Source: Octopus vulgaris (lineage: Eukaryota). Taken from it: 64,000 bases of DNA. The notes below the pieces were generated by a model. That model had not been told where the DNA came from. It did not search any database and saw only the letters and a list, made by a program, of their open reading frames with translations. The translations under genes were made by a program, and so were the position numbers. Where the stretch lies: the NCBI GenBank assembly GCA_951406725.2, contig OX597824.1:48794001-48858000 (forward strand). The letters run 5' to 3'. Within the stretch, counting starts at the first letter, position 1; every line of letters starts with the position of its first letter. Below are positions 7,908 through 61,218 of this stretch, piece by piece.

Positions 7908-10900
7908 CTTTTTTTTTCTTCTTTCAAATTTGCTTCCATTTCTTGCCGAGTGTCTTCCCGACTCCTAGGGCAAAGAAACTCATAGTATACATTAGTAGGT
8001 CATTAAACTAAACTCAATAATTCGTTCATTTTTTAAAGTTAAATTAAAATACATGGGTAGTAATAGTTCTCACATCGACAATGCTCTTCTCAATACGTGT
8101 GATGTACCAGTTAAGACAATCTTTTGCACTTCTTGCGGGGATGGTAAGCCAGGGATCATTCTCATATAATTTTCGGTTCCCTTCTTGATCATTCCTAGTG
8201 CTCCTACGATCACTGGTACTGTAACCGCCTTGAGATACCACATTTTCTCAATTTCAATGAGTAGGTCTTTATATTTTCTGAGCTTGTCAAACTCTTTCGC
8301 TGAGATATTATGGTCACAGGGGATGCTCATGTCGATCAATAAGCAAACTTTATTGTTTTGGTCTTTCACAACAATATCTGGTTTATTGGCCTTGATGGTT
8401 CGGTCTGTATGTACTGGAAAGTCCCACAGAATTGTTACATTTTCTCCTTCAGTTACAGCCTCAGGGTGGTGATTATACCACTTGTCGGCAGTTTTGATAT
8501 TGTAATGCCGACTTATTAGCCAGTTTAGATATTGGCCAACTCTGTCATGTCTTAATTTATACTCCACTGGTGTTAAGACTTTACATCCAGAGATTAGGTG
8601 GTCCACTGTTTCAATCATGTCGTTGCAGAATCGGCATTTTGGGTCTGCTCCATTTTTCATCACATTGGCCTGGTAGTTCCGGGTTAATAGACTTTGATCT
8701 TGAGCAGCCAGGATGGAACCTTTGCTCTCTGCTTTTAGCCCTGAGCTCCGTAGCCACTGATGGGTTTGCTTCTGGTCAACATCAGCTTGTTTGCTGCGGG
8801 CCACATATTTGCCGTGCAGAGGTTTCTCCTCCCACCTATCAGCCAATTGCTCGTGCGCTTTTTTCGTTGCCATTATTTTCACCTTCTTTGCAACAATAGT
8901 TGCCATACTTCCCTCGGGTTGTTCAGTTTGGGTATCCTGCACGAGATCAATAGCAAATTTTTTGCTTTCCTTTATGATAGAATGAAGTTTCTTTCGTCTC
9001 TCGTGATTTTCTACGAGTTTAGCATCCAGTCATTCGTTATTTCAAGATATTTGGCCAGTCCAATTTTGGTTGTTTTGTAAGCTAGTTCAAATTGGATCAG
9101 GTCTCGACCTCCTTGGGCTCTGGGAAGGTAAAGGCGATCAACGTCTGCCTTTGGGTGGTGCATCCTATTACAACTCAGCAGCTTGCGTATTTTCCTATCT
9201 ATATTCTTTACTTTACTCATATTTCAGTTCAACACATTGTAGCTATAAGTAACAACTGGAACTGCTAAGGAATTTATAGCTAACACCTTGTTACGTGCAT
9301 TTAGTTCAGATTTCATGACTGCACGAACTCTCCTATAACATTCCTTCCTGATCTTCTCTTTCATGCTTGCATGCTGAATACCAGAGCCTTCATTTATCCC
9401 TATGCAGAATATTAAAGGTGAAAGTGAGTCTCCTTGAAAAATTCTACAGTTGATGTTTATATTCTCTGAGGCAAGTACTCCATTAGAGTGGTATAATTGG
9501 AGATTCGTATTCCACAACGACATATTGTGCTTCAGGAAGTTTGAAATCACAGGGGAAATTTTGAAGATGTCCAGCGATCTCAAGATCCATGGATGCGGTA
9601 TACTGTTGAAGGGATTTTTATAGTCAATCCATGTGGAGCTGAGATTTCTGCGCTTGTTGTGACAGTTCTCAAGGATCATACGATTAATTAGCAGTTGATC
9701 TTTGCATCCGTTCTTCTCCATGAATGCATATGTTTTCTCCGCCAGGATAGATGTTAGGATTATATACGTGGTGGATAGACAGGTTATAGGCCGATAGTTT
9801 TTTGGAAGGTTGGTTTCGTTATTCTTTGGGAGTAGGTAAGTAATACCACTTGCTAACCATTCAGGTGTTTTCTTTGGGTCTCTCATAATTCCATTGAGAA
9901 GCTGAACTAGCTTACCGTGTGTGCATGGGAGCGATGCGAGCCAGAATTTCGGCACCCTATCTTTACCGGGGGATTTCCAATTATGGAGGCCTTCGTGAGT
10001 GCCTTTCTTAGGTCTGCTATTGTGATGTCTTCCTATGCTTGTTGTAAATTTTGGTAGAATCCTTCTGTTTGTATAATCCAGTCTGCATTTATGTTGTACG
10101 TCTTCTTGTCACTCCAAATCCTTTTCCATGGGAGGGGGGACTTTAACGGTTACTTTCTCCTTCCCTATTTTCTCTGTAGAATTTTTTTCGTATTCTTTGG
10201 GCTTTTGCTTGGACTTTTTGTTTCAGCGTTTCTTTTATTGATATCAGTTCTTCTCTTGGTGAGGATCAAAATTTTCTCTTCATCTTTCTTCCTGTTCTGG
10301 ATCTTACATCATTTCCACATATTAGTTCATTTAATATTGATATTTCCCCTCTCATAAATTCAATCTCTTTTCAATTTTACTTCTCCAGGTTTGATTTCTT
10401 CCCAGGTTTGGTTTTCTTTGTTTTTTTTTTTCGGGGGCATACAGCTGGTTTCAATTGCCCTAGCAGAAGCGTAAATAATTTCATTTAACTCAGTAAAATC
10501 AGGTTTTAATTCTTGTATTATTTCATTTGTTACATAGTTGCCAATTTGGATTTGTTTTTTATTTTGGTTTGTATTTGAGAGTTTATGAAGTGGTTCTCTA
10601 TCATTCATACTTGTATGTCTTACAACTTCAAGCGTATTCAGGATTTTCTGCCTCATTTCTGCCATAGACTTTCTGTGTTCTTCAGCAAATGCGAGGTCTT
10701 CAGTTATTGTTGTTTTATCATTTTCTTGGCTATCTTTAACGGTTCAATAGAATTTCTTGTATCTTCAGGCCTTTGCGTACTTTGGTCAGATGGCAGTCTT
10801 TCAATTAAGCCTCGTGGCGGGCTATACTGTTCATCTGATTCTTCATTTCCTTTATGTCTTATATTTATGTCCTTTTCCGTTGCGTGCTTGAACGCGCTTA

Positions 10901-11587
10901 TTTCACTGTCTGTGAGTCTGTTACTTCTAAGGATATCCCTCCTCACATTTGCCAATTTGTTCTCGTCCAAATAGGGCCTACTGTCTTGATACCGTGTTCT
11001 CCATATACTGTAAGAGTTTGAGGTGTGTCTCTCTTGAGATGGCTTACCTAATGCATAATAATAAGCGTATATTACTTCTTTATACTCTTCTCGGGTCCAT
11101 TTGTTCCGCTTACATTTTTCTTTCTGTGATGGTTGTGGTGGTGAACTTGGAGGGCTCGAGTTGGGGAATTTCCTGTTCAAGTGACCATCCATGTCCGTAT
11201 TCGGAGAAGAGTTTGTGCCAGTTGATGACTTTTCGATCCCAGGCTGGCTCTTCCCTGGGGGACGCGCTTCCAGATTAACTATAGGACAAGCGATTTGGTA
11301 TACTGATGTAGTTTTCCTTTTAGTTTCCAAAAACATTTTGGTGCTACGATAATGTTATCATTTTTGAGCTTTGAGAGGCTCGTGGAGAGACGGCAATCAA
11401 GGAAGAAGGGACGACAAAATGTTCACACAAAATTGGAGATGTTTATGTTTCTAAATTTTTTTTGTTAGGCGTTCGCTTGTATGTCCCAAGCTGCAGATAT
11501 GCAAGTTCCTTAACTTAATTTTGGGGAAAATTCAAATTACTCACAGAAAACAGCAGATCTTCCAGTTTTTTCACAGTTGTTCTTTCA

Positions 11588-15724: not shown

Positions 15725-15980
15725 GGCTGAACAAGCACCTGGACGAAAACAAACTGTTCCCAGAAGAGCAGAAAGGATGCCGCAAAGGCTCATATGGCTG
15801 TAAAGATCAACTAATGATTAATAAAGCCATAACTGAAGACAGCCACAGAAAGAAGAAAGGCCTCAGTATGGCCTGGATTGACTACAAAAGGCGTTTGATA
15901 GCATCCCCCACACATGGATCCTCGAAACACTAGCCATTAACAAAGTAGCACCAACAATCATAAAATTCATAGAGCACTCT

Positions 15981-16433
15981 ATGAATAAATGGCAAACAGT
16001 CCTACACCTCCAAACAAAAGAGGGACTCATGAAAACCAAAGACATCCCCATTAGAAGAGGAATATTCCAGGGAGACACGCTCTCTCCACTCCTTTTCTGC
16101 TTGGCACTGTCACCTCTATCTGATATGCTAAATAGAACTGGATACGGATATAAATGTTACGGCAAAACGATCAGCTACCTTTTATATATGGATGACCTAA
16201 AACTATACGCTGCAAATGACAAACAGCTGGAAACACTATTAAAGACAGTTCATGGATTTACCAAAGAAATAGATATGAAATTTGGATTAGAAAAATGCGC
16301 CAAAGTAACCATGAAAAGAGGAAAACTAGTTAAGAGTAACAACATCACACTAGATAAAACCAATGAAATAAAAGAATTAGACCAAAGCCAAACTTACAAA
16401 TACTTAGGAATCCATGAACTAGATAAGACATAA
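15981..16433 (+). pseudogene. Reverse transcriptase core fragment
   Basis: RGIFQGDTLSPLLF and LLYMDDLKLYA; premature stop at 16431. Confidence 0.9.
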
Positions 16434-16627
16434 CACACACAAATGAAAGAGAAAATAAAAAAGAATATTATAGACGAGTTAGATCAATACTAAACACAGA
16501 GCTCAATGCTAAAAACAAGATAATAGGTATCAACACTTTAGCTGTCCCAGTTATAAGTTACAGCTACAATATCCTTAACTGGACACGAAATGAACTGACC
16601 AAAATAGATAGGAAAACAAGAAAAATA

Positions 16628-17743
16628 ATGACAGGATCTAGGATGCATCAGCCAAAATCTGACATAGAAAGACTATATATACAACGTATAGAAGGTGGTA
16701 GAGGCCTTATACAGCTGGAAAACTACTATAAAATAACCACCATAGGACTACAAAAATATCTACTTCAGAAGGAAGGAAAACTGATCCAGATAGCGGCAAA
16801 ACACGAGCAAAACAAAAAACTGTTCTCAGTATTTAAGGAAGCTGACAAATACAAACAAGAAATCATACCACCTAATAAACATGAAGAAGAAGAAGAAGAT
16901 GAAGAAACAACAAAAGCTATAAAACAAATGAAATCCAAACTAAAAATAGAACAGCAACGAACCATGATCAAACGATGGCAAGAAAAGCCCCTTCATGGTA
17001 AATACTGGACTAAACTAACCGCAAAAGAAATAGACAAAGAAAAATCCCAGCAATGGTTGAGAAGCTCAGGACTCAAAGCAGAAACAGAAGGATTTTTAAT
17101 TGCAGCACAAGACCAAAGCCTCCCCACCAGAAATTACCAAAAACATGTAATGAAAAGAAACATTACAAGTAACTGCAGAATATGTGGAGATGGACAAGAA
17201 ACAATAAATCATATTATCTCTAGCTGCCCAGTATTGGCTAAGAAGGAATATATTCACAGACATGACAGAGTTGGAACCTACATACATTGGAAGCTATGCC
17301 AACATTATGGAATAACAACAGAAAAAAGATGGTATAGGCACACACCAGAAAAGGTCACAGAAAACGAGAAAGCAACCATACTCTGGGATATGCCGATACA
17401 CACAGATAGAGAAATTAAGGCCAACAGACTAGATATAGTTGTCAGAGATCATGAAGAAAAAAAATGCTTTCTAATTGATGTATCAATACCGGCAGATGAC
17501 AACGTGTCTCTAAAAGAAATGGAGAAACTCTCAAAATACAAAGACCTGGAAATAGAGGTAACTAGAATGTGGAATCTGAAAACAGAAACAATTCCTATCA
17601 TAGTAGGTGCATTAGGCATGATAAAAAAATATTCAGACAAATACATAACAAAAACACCAGGACTTACAAACACATATAACATACAGAAAATTGCACTACT
17701 AGGCACTGCACACATCCTACGCAGAACACTTTCCATACAATAA
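16628..17743 (+). pseudogene. Linker, CCHC zinc knuckle and RLE endonuclease segment (371 aa)
   Basis: CRICGDGQETINHIISSC, RHD, RLDIVV (PD in sister copies), LIDVSIP, KLSKY. Confidence 0.9.
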
Positions 17744-18384: not shown

Positions 18385-18655
18385 ATCCTTTCTATTAAAG
18401 GCACATGGCCTGGAATTTGGGAGAGGGGACTAGTCGATTACATCGACCCCAGTGTTTCACTGATACTTAATTTATCAACCCCGAGGGGTTGAAAGGCAAA
18501 GTCGACCTCGGCGGAATTCGAACTGCTGAGGTCGACTTTGCCTTTCATCTTTTCGGAGTCGATAAAATAAGTACCAGTTGTGCGCAGGTTCGATGTAATC
18601 GACTTACATCCCACCCCTGAAATTGCTGGACTTGTGCCAAAATCTGAAATCAATA
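18385..18655. mobile_element. Head-to-head inverted pair of headless SINE family A bodies
   Basis: GAAAGGCAAAGTCGACCTCGGCG (18491-18513) faces CTGCTGAGGTCGACTTTGCCTTTC (18523-18546). Confidence 0.85.
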
Positions 18656-41953: not shown

Positions 41954-41957
41954 AGAT

Positions 41958-42352
41958 GGCGTGGCGGAAACGTTAGCACGCCGGGCGTTAATGCTTAGCG
42001 GTATTTCGTCTGCCGCTACGTTCTGAGTTCAAATTCCGCCGAGGTCGACTTTGCCTTTCATCCTTTCGGGGTCGATAAATTAAGTACCAGTTATGCACTG
42101 GAGGTCGATGTAATCGACTTAATCCGTTTGTCTGTCCCTGTTTGTCCCCTCTGTGTTTAGCCCCTTGTGGGTAGTAAAGAAACAGGTATTTCGTCTGCTG
42201 TTACGTTCTGAGTTCAAATTCCGCCGAGGTCGATTTTGCCTTTCATCCTTTCGGAGTCGATTATATAAGTACCAGTTGCGTAGTGGGCTCGATCTAATCA
42301 ACTAGCCCCCTCCCCCAAAATTTCGGGCCTTGTGCCTAGTGTAGAAAAGAAT
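41958..42352 (+). mobile_element. SINE family A heterodimer (tail 1 unit plus headless tail 2 unit)
   Basis: Junction GTAAAGAAACA-GGTATTTCGTCTG at ~42174-42197. Confidence 0.9.
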
Positions 42353-51993: not shown

Positions 51994-53672
51994 TATGTTT
52001 GACTTTTGCTTTATGTCTGTACAAGTTGGCTCCAAGTCTCACCCAGAGACCTCAAGAGACAACAGGTTGGAAGTTCACGTTGTTGTTATGCCTAGTGTGC
52101 CATATATTTGGGGGGGGGTTGTACTAAGTGAATGTCTAATACATAAATTTTAAAAAAAAGAAAAAAAAGTTTGTTTTAAACCTTGGGATTACATAGAGAG
52201 TATTTTGCGTAGGATATGAGCAGTTCCCATGAGCACTATCTTTTGAATTTCTGCCATTTTGGGGTTTCCTGTTATCTGAGTTAGGTAGCAATCAGCTCCT
52301 TTCGCTATCATTCCCAGGGCACCTATGACAACAGGTATTGTTTTAGTCTTCAGCTTTCACATTTTGCTGATTTCTATTTCAAGATCTTTATATTTGCTCA
52401 GTTTTTGGTAGGTCTTGACAGATACGTTTATATCGATTGGGACAGTCATATCAATGAGGAGGCATGTTCTCTGTCTGAACACTTTCAATATGATGTCTGG
52501 CCTATTTGCATCTATCTTTCTGTCAGTTTGAATGGTGAAGTTCCAGAGGAGTGAGATGTGGTTATTTTCAAGCACTGGAGGTGGATTGTGTTCCCACCAG
52601 TTTTTTTCATGGGGCAAATCCAGGTTTTTGCAAATTACCCAGTGAATATATTGTGCAGCTCTATCATGCCTGTTGAGGTACTCTGTAGACGTTTGAAGAC
52701 TGCATTTGGAGACAACATGATCAATGGTTTCATTTTGTTGTCAGCATACACGACATGTTGGGCTACTGCCGTTCTTTAATATGTTGGCCTGGTAGTTTCT
52801 TGTTGGTAGGCATTGATCTTGAGCTGCTATGATAAACCCTTCTGTTTCAGATTTTAAGCCAGAGGCCATTAGCCATTGATGGGTCAGGGCTTTGTCAATA
52901 TCTGCATTATTTGCTCTCTTTGGGTATTTGCCACAGAGAGGTTTTTCTTGCCATTTATTATTCAGAATATCTAAGGCCGCAGTTTTGGCACGGGTTTTCA
53001 TGCGCCTAGCTTTTTCTGTGATTGTTTCTTGTATGTCCATCTCTAATTCCGAAATTTGTTGTATTCGGAATTCACTTAGATATTCCTTTGTCTGTTTTGT
53101 TACTGAGTATGATGCTTTTTTGTTTTCATGTTTTGAGACAAGTTTTAGCATCCAGTCCTCAGAGTTTTTCAGGTAGGTGTCTAGGCCAATTGTAGCAATC
53201 TTCATTGTTATTGCCAGTTGCAAAAGACCACAGCCTCCCTCTTTTCTTGGTAGATAAAGTCGTTCTATATCTGCCTTAGGGTGGTGCATTTTATGCATTG
53301 TCAACAGTTTTCTTATTTTTCTGTCGAGCTGACATATTTCAGTAATTGACCAGTTAACGATATTGAACTGTAAGTCATGACTGGTATGGCTAATGCATTG
53401 ATCGCTTCGATCCTGTTTCTTGCATTCAGCTCTGTCTTGAGTATTGCTCTCACTCTTCGATAGCATTCTCTCCTGATCCTTTCCTTCATCTCTGAATACC
53501 TTATTCCGTTCCCTTCAATTACCCCTAGGTACTTGTAGCTCTCCGCTGGGTCTAGTTCTTTTATGACATTCTGCTGGTCAAGGTTAACGTTAGATGTTTC
53601 TGTCATTTTTCCTTTGATAAAGGTAGCTTTTGCACATTTATCGAGGCCGAATTGCATTCTGATGTCGTCATT
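51993..53672 (-). mobile_element. R4/Dong-like family C, 5'-truncated
   Basis: FGLDKCAK..YKYLG; HHPKADIERLYLPR; FIIAAQDQ; CRVC; RPDII..LIDMTVP. Distinct 3' UTR ending in (TAA)n. Confidence 0.92.
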
Positions 53673-59460: not shown

Positions 59461-60022
59461 ATATATTTGAAGAAGAAGAAGAAGAAGAAGAAGAAGAAGA
59501 AGAAGAAGAAGAAGAAGAAGAAGAAGAAGAAGAAGAAGAAGAAGAAGAAATTTCTTCTCTCTAAACCATTGAACGGAAGGAAGTGGGGGAAAAGGCTATC
59601 AAATTACAAGAATCTCAAAATGGAAATAATCTGGATTTGGTAAATGAAAAAAAAAGGCAACAATACTAATTGGTACACAAAGTATATTAATAAAGAATAT
59701 TAAAAAAACATAAATATCATAGCACGAGAAGGCCAATACTTGATTGGGAACAAAATCGATTCCACCGGAATTCGAACTCCACCAATAAAATGACTAATGA
59801 CAACGATTTTCACTACTTCCTCAAAGTGACAAAGAGGCAGCAAAATGGAACAGTCGATTAAATCGAGATTAGTACTTTACTAGGAGCTGTTTTATCAACC
59901 CCAGGAAGAAGAAAAGCAAAAATCAATCCAGAGATCGGGGGGATTTCCGATAATATTAAAGAACACAACTAAATACTGCCACTAAAAACTCGTTTCTCTA
60001 CCAATTGCAACATGCGAACGAT

Positions 60023-60992
60023 TCTTATTTCTTCACTGCCCACAAGGGGCTACACACAGAGGGGACAAACAAGGATAGACAAACGGATTAAATCGATTAT
60101 ATCGATCCCAGTGCATAACTGGTACTTATTTAATCGACCCCGAAAAGATGAAAGGCAAAGTCGACCTCGGTGGAATTTGAACTCAGAACGTAGCGGCAGA
60201 CGAAATACCTATTTCTTTACTACCCACAAGAGGCTACACACAGAGGGGACAAACAAGGACAGACACACGGATTAAGTCGATTATATCGACCCCAGTGCAT
60301 AACTGGTACTTGATGTATCGACCCCGAAAGGATGAAAGGCAAAGTCGACCTCGGTGGAATTTGAACTCAGAACGTAGCGGCAGACGAAATACCTATTTCT
60401 TTATTACCCACAAGAGGCTCCACACAGAGGGGACAAACAAGGACAGACACACGGATTAAGTCGATTATATCGACCCCAGTGCGTAACTGGTACTTAATGT
60501 ATCGACCCCGAAAGGATGAAAGGCAAAGTCGACCTCGGTGAAATTTGAACTCAGAACGTAGCGGCAGACGAAATACCTATTTCTTTACTACCCACAAGAG
60601 GCTACACACAGAGGGGACAAACAAGGACAGACACACGGATTAAGTCGATTATATCGACCCCAGTGCGTAACTGGTACTTAATTTATCGACCCCGAAAGGA
60701 TGAAAGGCAAAGTCGACCTCGGTGGAATTTGAACTCAGAACGTAGCGGCAGACGAAATACCTATTTCTTTACTGCCCACAAGAGGCTACACACAGAGGGG
60801 ACAAACAAGGACAGACACACGGATTAAGTCGATTATATCGACCCCAGTGCGTAACTGGTACTTAATGTATCGACCCCGAAAGGATGAAAGGCAAAGTCGA
60901 CCTCGGCGGAATTTGAACTCAGAACGTAACGGCAGGCGAAATACCGCTAAGCATTTCGCCCGGCGTGCTAAAGATTCTGCCAGGTCGTCACC
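60023..60992 (-). repeat. SINE family A concatemer: one head plus five tandem 184-bp units
   Basis: ATTTCTT unit starts at 60027, 60211, 60395, 60579 and 60763; tRNA A-box head only at ~60947-60992. Confidence 0.95.
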
Positions 60993-61002
60993 CCAACAAT
61001 AA

Positions 61003-61218
61003 TCATTTCTACTTTAGGCACAAGGCCCGAAATTTTTGGAGAGTGGGGGACAGTCGATCACATCGACCCCAGTACTCAACTGGTACTTTATTTATCGATC
61101 CCGAAAAGATGAAAGGCAAAATCAAACTAGGCGAGATTTGAACTCAGAACGTAAAGACGGACGAAATGCCGCGAAGCATTTTGACTGGTATGCTAACGAT
61201 TCTGCTAGTTCGACGCCT
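61003..61218 (-). mobile_element. SINE family A (tail type 2), directly upstream of the concatemer
   Basis: Reverse complement of head, centre and CCTTGTGCCTAAAGTAGAAA tail. Confidence 0.85.

Follow-up and report, generated by a model that had tools for sequence, protein, structure and literature searches.

A five-unit SINE array in Octopus vulgaris and its probable origin at an insertion site shared with LINEs

Chains of tandem SINE units have been described in several animal groups, and the accounts given here follow the accessible parts of the source papers. It has been reported that in crocodilians SINEU-3 and the LINE group Tx1-Mar have one insertion site inside a mobile element, and that tandem SINEs arise there by sequential insertion (Kojima 2015, PMC4494074). 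In squamates, the sSat repeats are built of units shorter than the SINE, with end units that reach the SINE termini and middle units that are more uniform; unequal recombination and insertion into the same locus have been named as the routes to such repeats (Vassetzky et al. 2023, PMC10702118). The blood clam carries multimers of the form TSD-(SINE)n-TSD, mollusc chains that combine a single complete head with head-truncated repeats inside one shared TSD (PMC11481361). In mammals, a large share of B2, Dip and Ves copies stand head to tail, with up to eight units in a chain, and the authors left open whether insertion at the tail or dimeric templates are responsible (PMC8466645). Finally, the metazoan non-LTR retrozymes form tandem units of 150–300 bp, and their model resembles the RNA circle that had been proposed for the locus described here (PMC7761336).

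This locus is an array at 48.85 Mb of a 100-Mb contig of Octopus vulgaris, inside a window of 64,000 nucleotides, which is the whole stretch of DNA analysed. The array is an ordinary product of a SINE/LINE system, and this system works like SINEU-3/Tx1-Mar, yet its target is the SINE itself and most of its joints are seamless. Overall, we put a probability of roughly two in three on the reading that the joints come from insertion of SINE into SINE at a LINE site, with the inner units then added by unequal exchange. A sequence-only reading of the window had described one head with five 184-bp units, and this architecture was borne out: Tandem Repeats Finder gives a period of 184 with 5.0 copies and 96% matches at 60026-60945, and alignment resolves, on the minus strand, a single 47-nt head followed by five units of exactly 184 nt each (Table 1). 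The 4/4 joints are identical, AAAGAAATA running directly into GGTATTTC, and re-enter at position 48 of the 231-nt monomer, where the 3′ arm of the head hairpin starts; in B2, Dip and Ves multimers, by contrast, full-length units are joined at the tail, whereas re-entry here is inside the head and at a fixed base (PMC8466645). Pairwise differences amount to 3-7 nt among units 1-4 and to 11-15 nt between unit 5 and the others. Unit 5 is followed by AGAATCGTT, equal to head positions 15-23, and this second joint type had been missed in the sequence-only reading.

Table 1. Features of the array and of related SINE copies, in positions of the window
Feature	Position	Strand	Basis
SINE head, positions 1-47, single copy	60946..60992	-	sequence alignment; A-box-like motif at ~60982-60968
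13-bp head hairpin; 3′ arm starts at 60945 (position 48), the re-entry point and LINE insertion site	60933..60962	-	fold; LINE 3′ ends
Unit 1, first, joined to the head; B-box-like motif at ~60920-60908	60762..60945	-	alignment
Unit 2, hybrid: unit 5 alleles 5′, unit 1 alleles 3′	60578..60761	-	alignment, allele columns
Unit 3, hybrid as unit 2	60394..60577	-	alignment, allele columns
Unit 4, hybrid as unit 2	60210..60393	-	alignment, allele columns
Unit 5, last, most diverged; likely an older copy serving as target	60026..60209	-	11-15 differences
LINE-like 3′ tail, last ~50 nt of each unit (unit 5 coordinates)	60026..60078	-	aligns with 3′ ends of three LINE families
Joint 1, AAAGAAATA followed by GGTATTTCG	60753..60770	-	repeated at 60586-60569, 60402-60385, 60218-60201
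AGAATCGTT beyond the last tail, second joint type; equal over 9 nt to head positions 15-23	60017..60025	-	1,950 exact genome copies of the joint type
Dimer of the same SINE family: head + tail-A unit, joint 42184/42185, second unit with tail B	41956..42352	+	alignment
Older tail-B monomer of the same SINE family, directly upstream of the array head	61007..61217	-	82% identity to array head + unit

No TSD is recognisable around the five-unit array, ARAGORN returned no tRNA genes, and Rfam gave no matches in the array. The A-box-like label of the head and the B-box-like label of unit 1 are putative, assigned by fit to the Pol III consensus. The same joint had been placed at about 42180 as well; a joint does lie there, but it reads AAAGAAACA followed by GGTATTT, with one change, and leads into a second unit with a different tail. 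Elsewhere in the window, two SINE cores in opposite orientation are fused (18524-18432 on the minus strand, 18525-18611 on the plus strand), both beginning near the B-box region, and this pair looks like an inverted or twin-primed insertion. Two 168-bp copies at 1263-1599, 98% alike and each with a terminal (AAT)n, may be 3′ ends of a retroelement in tandem. At 8073-11354 (-), 15882-17740 (+) and 52744-53514 (-) there are frames of 180-440 aa without stops, some of them weakly like LINE RT (24-25% identity); we take these frames to be pieces of a different LINE family, putatively R4/Dong-like by its motifs.

The precision of the junction holds across the genome. The 32-letter joint pattern has 11,958 exact matches, a lower bound, compared with 0 for its reversed control. 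Joints of this self-targeting SINE/LINE system run into the tens of thousands, and the five-unit array is one instance. The family is short, dispersed and very abundant, with 17,239 exact head hairpins and 85,454 exact tails in 2.8 Gb and none for the reversed controls. In 983 kb of contig C1 plus the window, a sample enriched for the position-48 joint, re-entry is at position 48 in 195 of 223 joints, at position 15 in 13, and at 48 after one extra GAAATA in 6. The first 30 exact tails on contig C1 lead to a unit at position 48 in 14 cases and at position 15 in 2, to other DNA starting with GG in 9 and to other DNA in 5. The octopus chains thus differ from those of the blood clam, where inner units are also tail-truncated, multimers make up ~3% of copies and the accessible text describes no site-sharing LINE, whereas here the tails are kept and 14 of 30 lead into a unit at 48 (PMC11481361). 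TSDs flank 51 of 97 headed tail-A elements (control 1/285) with a median length of 16 nt, and most chains keep one full head.

Chain lengths were taken from 1.39 Mb of DNA, most of it picked for its matches to a joint, head or tail on contig C1, together with 234 kb not selected by joint search; the latter held 35 single elements, 6 dimers and 1 trimer besides the five-mer. Chains of four to seven units stand at 21 places in this sample, seven is the maximum, and six or seven units occur in 2 of 451 sampled elements. By comparison, squamate sSat arrays have hundreds of units, are subtelomeric and are heterogeneous at short loci, whereas the octopus chains have at most seven units in the sample, are dispersed and show two fixed joints tied to the insertion site; the present array has three middle monomers, as against four or more in sSat (PMC10702118). 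The five-unit length comes from the assembly, and one could take the array for an assembly artefact of a shorter chain; however, all five units are distinct by 3-15 nt and in an ordered pattern, chains of four to seven units recur in the sample, and in the contigs of 4/4 independent runs from four organisms (none of these runs is on record as RNA) the back-joint with the best support is the one at position 48; we regard an artefact as scarcely credible.

Tandem arrays made of the head fragment only, with a period of 64-67 bp, were also observed at C10:17996023-17996501, C14:84691114-84691409 and C5:87874181-87875487 (8, 5 and 7 exact matches); they are likely a second minisatellite type seeded by nested insertion. 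At the locus L006 (C1:1415339), a joint is succeeded, no more than ~45 nt on, by a further chain that runs the other way, the two standing tail to tail. In the cephalopod literature searched, no fixed-joint, self-targeting SINE was found; Repbase, SINEBase and published supplements may hold the family. The accessible parts of the octopus repeat annotation of 2026 (PMC13282606) and of PMC8967140 mention no such SINE arrangement. OK, OR1 and OR2 are abundant tRNA-type octopus SINE families of Ohshima and Okada 1994 (as cited in the accessible text of PMC4758252 and PMC4824008), and the present family may be one of them.

The position of the joint is best understood from the LINEs of the same genome. 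Of the three LINE families whose 3′ ends align with the SINE tail, the first (L231) has an RT + zf-RVT frame (RVT_1 and zf-RVT in L231) and 7,472 exact 3′ ends; the endonuclease domain PF03372 is found in homologs of its protein, and a LINE protein of the genome has a 65% identical homolog in Argonauta hians. L231:6254-9070 (C1) represents a young family, with copies 98-99% identical in protein and many 1149-aa open frames. As a site-specific partner the L231 family was rejected, 27 of 30 flanks being (TATC)n; the L231 tail pattern at position 48 resolved into SINE variants at 19 of 20 loci and a truncated tail at the twentieth. The second family has a tail ~85% like the SINE tail over 48 columns and ends nearly as the T-type SINE tail does; GGTA follows the 3′ end in 0 of the 17 copies read. 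Among 50 zf-RVT loci read, none had its 3′ end at position 48.

A LINE end at position 48 was found by a pattern search with 324 matches, in which, among the 20 read, one was a LINE end (L424) and 19 were SINE variants. L424 is a LINE C-terminus with 41% identity over 79 aa to the L231 RT/zf-RVT protein, and the tail of its family aligns with unit 5 at 41 of 55 columns. Among the relatives of L424, all 20 copies read terminate on their 3′ side at position 48; these copies were drawn from ~26 with a separate tail match among 40 scored of 803 candidates. The 3′ flank of these copies is a SINE body, of several subtypes, in 15 of 20, another element after ~13 nt in 4 and a new SINE head in 1, with a possible bias towards SINE-flanked matches as the L424 query held 19 nt of SINE. 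Because the LINE 3′ ends of this family fall at position 48, the joint corresponds to the insertion site of a sequence-specific LINE family, and the position of the joint is very probably set by that site. The family has a C-type tail, whereas most SINE joints follow T-type tails, and the comparison of the site-specific family covers its C-terminus only; a Tx1 label for the partner LINE is putative. Most SINE copies lie away from the position-48 site, and several LINE partners are therefore needed. The octopus system thus has in common with SINEU-3/Tx1-Mar a site shared by SINE and LINE (20 of 20 LINE copies and, in the enriched sample, 195 of 223 SINE joints), but the crocodilian SINEs have snRNA heads, a Mariner target and copies that sandwich the TSD, whereas here the target is the SINE's own head and the joints are mostly seamless (PMC4494074).

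Other LINEs of this genome also have fixed targets. Among zf-RVT LINEs of this kind (L395-L407, L412, L414), 14 of 20 loci end before GAAGCGACACCTAC, and copies stack at ~5.4-kb spacing at C2:73.05-73.07 Mb; L414 ends before ATACTTACCTGGCA, which we take to be the U1 snRNA 5′ end. At L444, L445, L449 and L452, the LINE specific to position 48 is followed by ~13 nt of target and then by the same non-SINE sequence, which suggests elements stacked at one site.

Insertion of SINEs at the same base can be seen directly in nested copies. Of 213 headed elements, six stand between an old head upstream and an old body downstream, and two of these six come from DNA picked at random; positions 48-60 followed by a new head have 102 exact matches in the genome. 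Among 28 distinct nested loci read, the new element stands after an old head in 15 and after an earlier joint in 13. Judged by eye, about seven nested loci have duplicated letters that agree with the resumed body rather than with the new element; several are ambiguous and at least four do not fit. Last units carry 2.07 rare alleles compared with 1.35 in first units, and the bodies behind LINEs carry 2.00 (n=15); in tail-A/tail-A dimers the values are 2.57 for last and 2.00 for first units (p=0.58, n=30), while tail-B/C last units have 3.93 against 1.78, an excess that may consist of subtype alleles. Pre-insertion sites outside SINEs start with GGTA in 13 of 35 cases for T-type and 1 of 21 for C-type elements (background 0.0027), and with AGA in 1 of 35 and 6 of 21, respectively, giving p=0.0009 for GGTA/AGA against tail type. 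It has been reported for RTE-related retroposons that the start of the target correlates with the 3′ end of the RNA, via pairing or nick choice (PMC6007223, accessible text).

A different origin of the joint would be a switch of template, in which RT passes from SINE RNA at position 48 to the 3′ end of an RNA ending in GGUAUUU, via a short overlap. The subtypes of first and last units are indeed nearly independent (agreement at nine polymorphic columns of 0.573, against 0.501 when permuted), in many copies up to 7 nt of the terminal tail agree with the joint, and TATTT is described as a Pol III terminator in other SINEs, namely Dip and Ves (PMC8466645, accessible text). Such a switch nevertheless predicts first and last units of equal age, whereas last units carry more rare alleles overall, and it leaves unexplained both the LINE at the same base and the duplicated target letters in nested loci; template switching is accordingly held to be very improbable.

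TSDs enclose the whole chain in 21 of 40 cases (control 1/285), and in 15 of 33 with tail-B ends, a result that copying of whole chains would predict as well. In 63 dimers the subtype of the head is unlinked to that of the last unit (6/21 vs 10/35, p=1.0), whereas in monomers head and body are linked (p=7e-5), and dimer first units are without the last unit's alleles near the site. On these two grounds, and with the old head kept in only 6 of 213 elements, the idea that seamless dimers keep the old head was rejected. Since the old head is not kept in dimers, either the head was replaced by the new copy or the chain was copied whole; head replacement is an added assumption, as so few headed elements retain an old head. 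An RT start inside the second unit was unsupported, a TSD at a short last unit being found in 0 of 14 chains, and an apparent excess of SINE 5′ ends at position 48 proved to consist of broken joints and alignment edges.

Copying of whole chains can be carried further into an explanation of its own: one or a few founding joints would have given dimeric or multimeric masters, Pol III would read through them, the LINE enzyme would copy the chain whole or from an inner tail, the precision of the joint would be inherited, and DNA exchange would lengthen some chains. The enclosing TSDs and the dimer heads unlinked to last units agree with this, as do the lack of a four-T run in the head and units 1-4, the correlation (rho 0.54) between first-unit and last-unit divergence in tail-A/tail-B chains, the absence of a significant age gap in tail-A/tail-A dimers, the monomer target sites that mimic the joint by tail type, and the joint common to four organisms. 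The missing TSDs at short last units speak against copying from an inner tail; moreover, last units are mixed in subtype and tail, the rare-allele load of dimer last units is like that of LINE target bodies, and master copying alone leaves the LINE at the same base and the nested intermediates unexplained. As a full account of the joints, master copying is judged unlikely, although it may act alongside self-insertion. For the dimers, we lean slightly towards self-insertion, rather than whole-chain copying, as the source of most of them.

On the preferred reading, LINE enzymes would paste new SINE copies into older copies at position 48, a process likely still ongoing. The step would be target-primed reverse transcription by the tail-sharing LINEs; the new cDNA, being homologous to the old head, would replace it and leave a seamless chain inside the old target duplication. 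RNA that reads past the tail into GGTAT may pair with the nicked target, and some chains may be copied whole from read-through RNA. Every unit start reads GG-TATTT (60939-60943 in unit 1), and TATTT at this place might put the 3′ end of the RNA directly beyond the joint; GGTATTTTG stands at 10 of the position-48 joints counted. Taken to its full extent, and still tentatively, the scheme would be a closed self-homing loop in which the SINE serves a site-specific LINE both as its passenger and as its landing pad: the SINE would insert at a base of its own promoter region, overwrite the old head, add a front unit seamlessly and restore the site, with read-through GGUAU sharpening the aim, chains seeding satellite-like arrays and the 13-bp inverted repeat perhaps guiding the nick.

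The explanation first offered for the array was of another kind. The sequence-only reading had proposed structure-guided multimerisation, either by cutting of the hairpin loop and ligation to a 184-nt circle copied by rolling-circle RT, or by fold-back of the cDNA and priming on a new RNA end. Its placing of the re-entry point in the loop of the head hairpin was confirmed, more exactly at the 3′ edge of the loop of a strong 13-bp hairpin (-20.4 kcal/mol, z -3.25). The inverted repeat GAAATA/TATTTC at the joint is likewise present, and GAAAT/ATTTC can pair across it; this stem of 5 bp has only -1.4 kcal/mol and z +0.39, however, and 124 of 200 shuffles fold equally well, so that folding at the joint is at chance level. 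In addition, the position-15 joint is equally precise without tail-to-arm pairing, and structure-guided joining is not supported. A DNA hairpin might still contribute to the choice of insertion site. As for fold-back priming, the sequence shows the RNA tail to be identical, not complementary, to the cDNA end that lies at the loop, and annealing between them is therefore impossible.

The circle fares no better when the units are compared. Inner units within arrays are alike, with an inner-inner divergence of 3.6%, as a circle would have it and as in the more uniform middle of sSat, but first and last units of one array diverge by 10.1%, almost as much as units from different arrays (10.8%), and only 4 of 56 arrays agree at all nine polymorphic columns; first and last units are thus not copies of one molecule, and the comparison of units within and between arrays, which had been put forward as a check on multimerisation, turns against the circle. 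In 30 of 33 arrays with C, A or T at position 48 of the head, G is nevertheless found at the joint. Most chains keep a full head, which would be absent from a circle. CTGANGA is the core motif of the hammerhead ribozyme; it is absent from both strands of unit 2 joined to itself, and Rfam gives no match in the array. Retrozymes, in contrast, have a hammerhead core in each unit and derive all units from one circle, whereas the octopus chains have a single promoter-like head, a LINE-like tail, TSDs and unlike end units (PMC7761336). With the inner units being polar hybrids of the end units as well, the circle and fold-back models are left with very slight prospects, scarcely above those of an assembly artefact.

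The later DNA-level expansion that the same reading had allowed for is, on the other hand, supported by these hybrid inner units and a nearly private haplotype. Units 2-4 carry the alleles of unit 5 at columns 10, 17 and 39 and those of unit 1 from column 64 on, with two single exceptions. This hybrid pattern is the expected product of unequal exchange in a dimer and therefore points to growth at the DNA level. Among 19 complete arrays, the polarity with the last unit 5′ and the first unit 3′ fits better than the reverse in 14 and worse in 3, with 2 ties; in arrays of four or more units the hybrid fit leaves 5.9 mismatches compared with 14.0 for control units, while in trimers the fit is poor (11.7 vs 13.6 for controls). 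A 48-mer with the three variants shared in the array occurs 4 times in the genome, 3 of them in the array, and its common form 5,527 times. Two paralogous insertions with the same flanks contain 2 and 3 units. Slippage of RT along a single RNA might also produce hybrids such as units 2-4; the low inner divergence together with the paralogous pair favours growth of arrays after insertion instead. In all likelihood, therefore, the present array grew at the DNA level, three inner units probably being added by unequal exchange between the first and the last unit, and it is best understood as a dimer that DNA exchange made longer, not as evidence for circular RNA.

For repeat annotation, the joints inflate SINE counts and family numbers, and dating is blurred because within one chain the head may be of another age than the body. 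The accessible texts on SINE multimers of mammals, squamates and bivalves do not settle how a dispersed retroposon turns into tandem repeats (PMC8466645, PMC10702118, PMC11481361), and the octopus chains offer a concrete, testable route. A LINE that targets its own passenger SINE would model the co-evolution of endonuclease specificity and RNA-target pairing, and also 5′ joining by homology.
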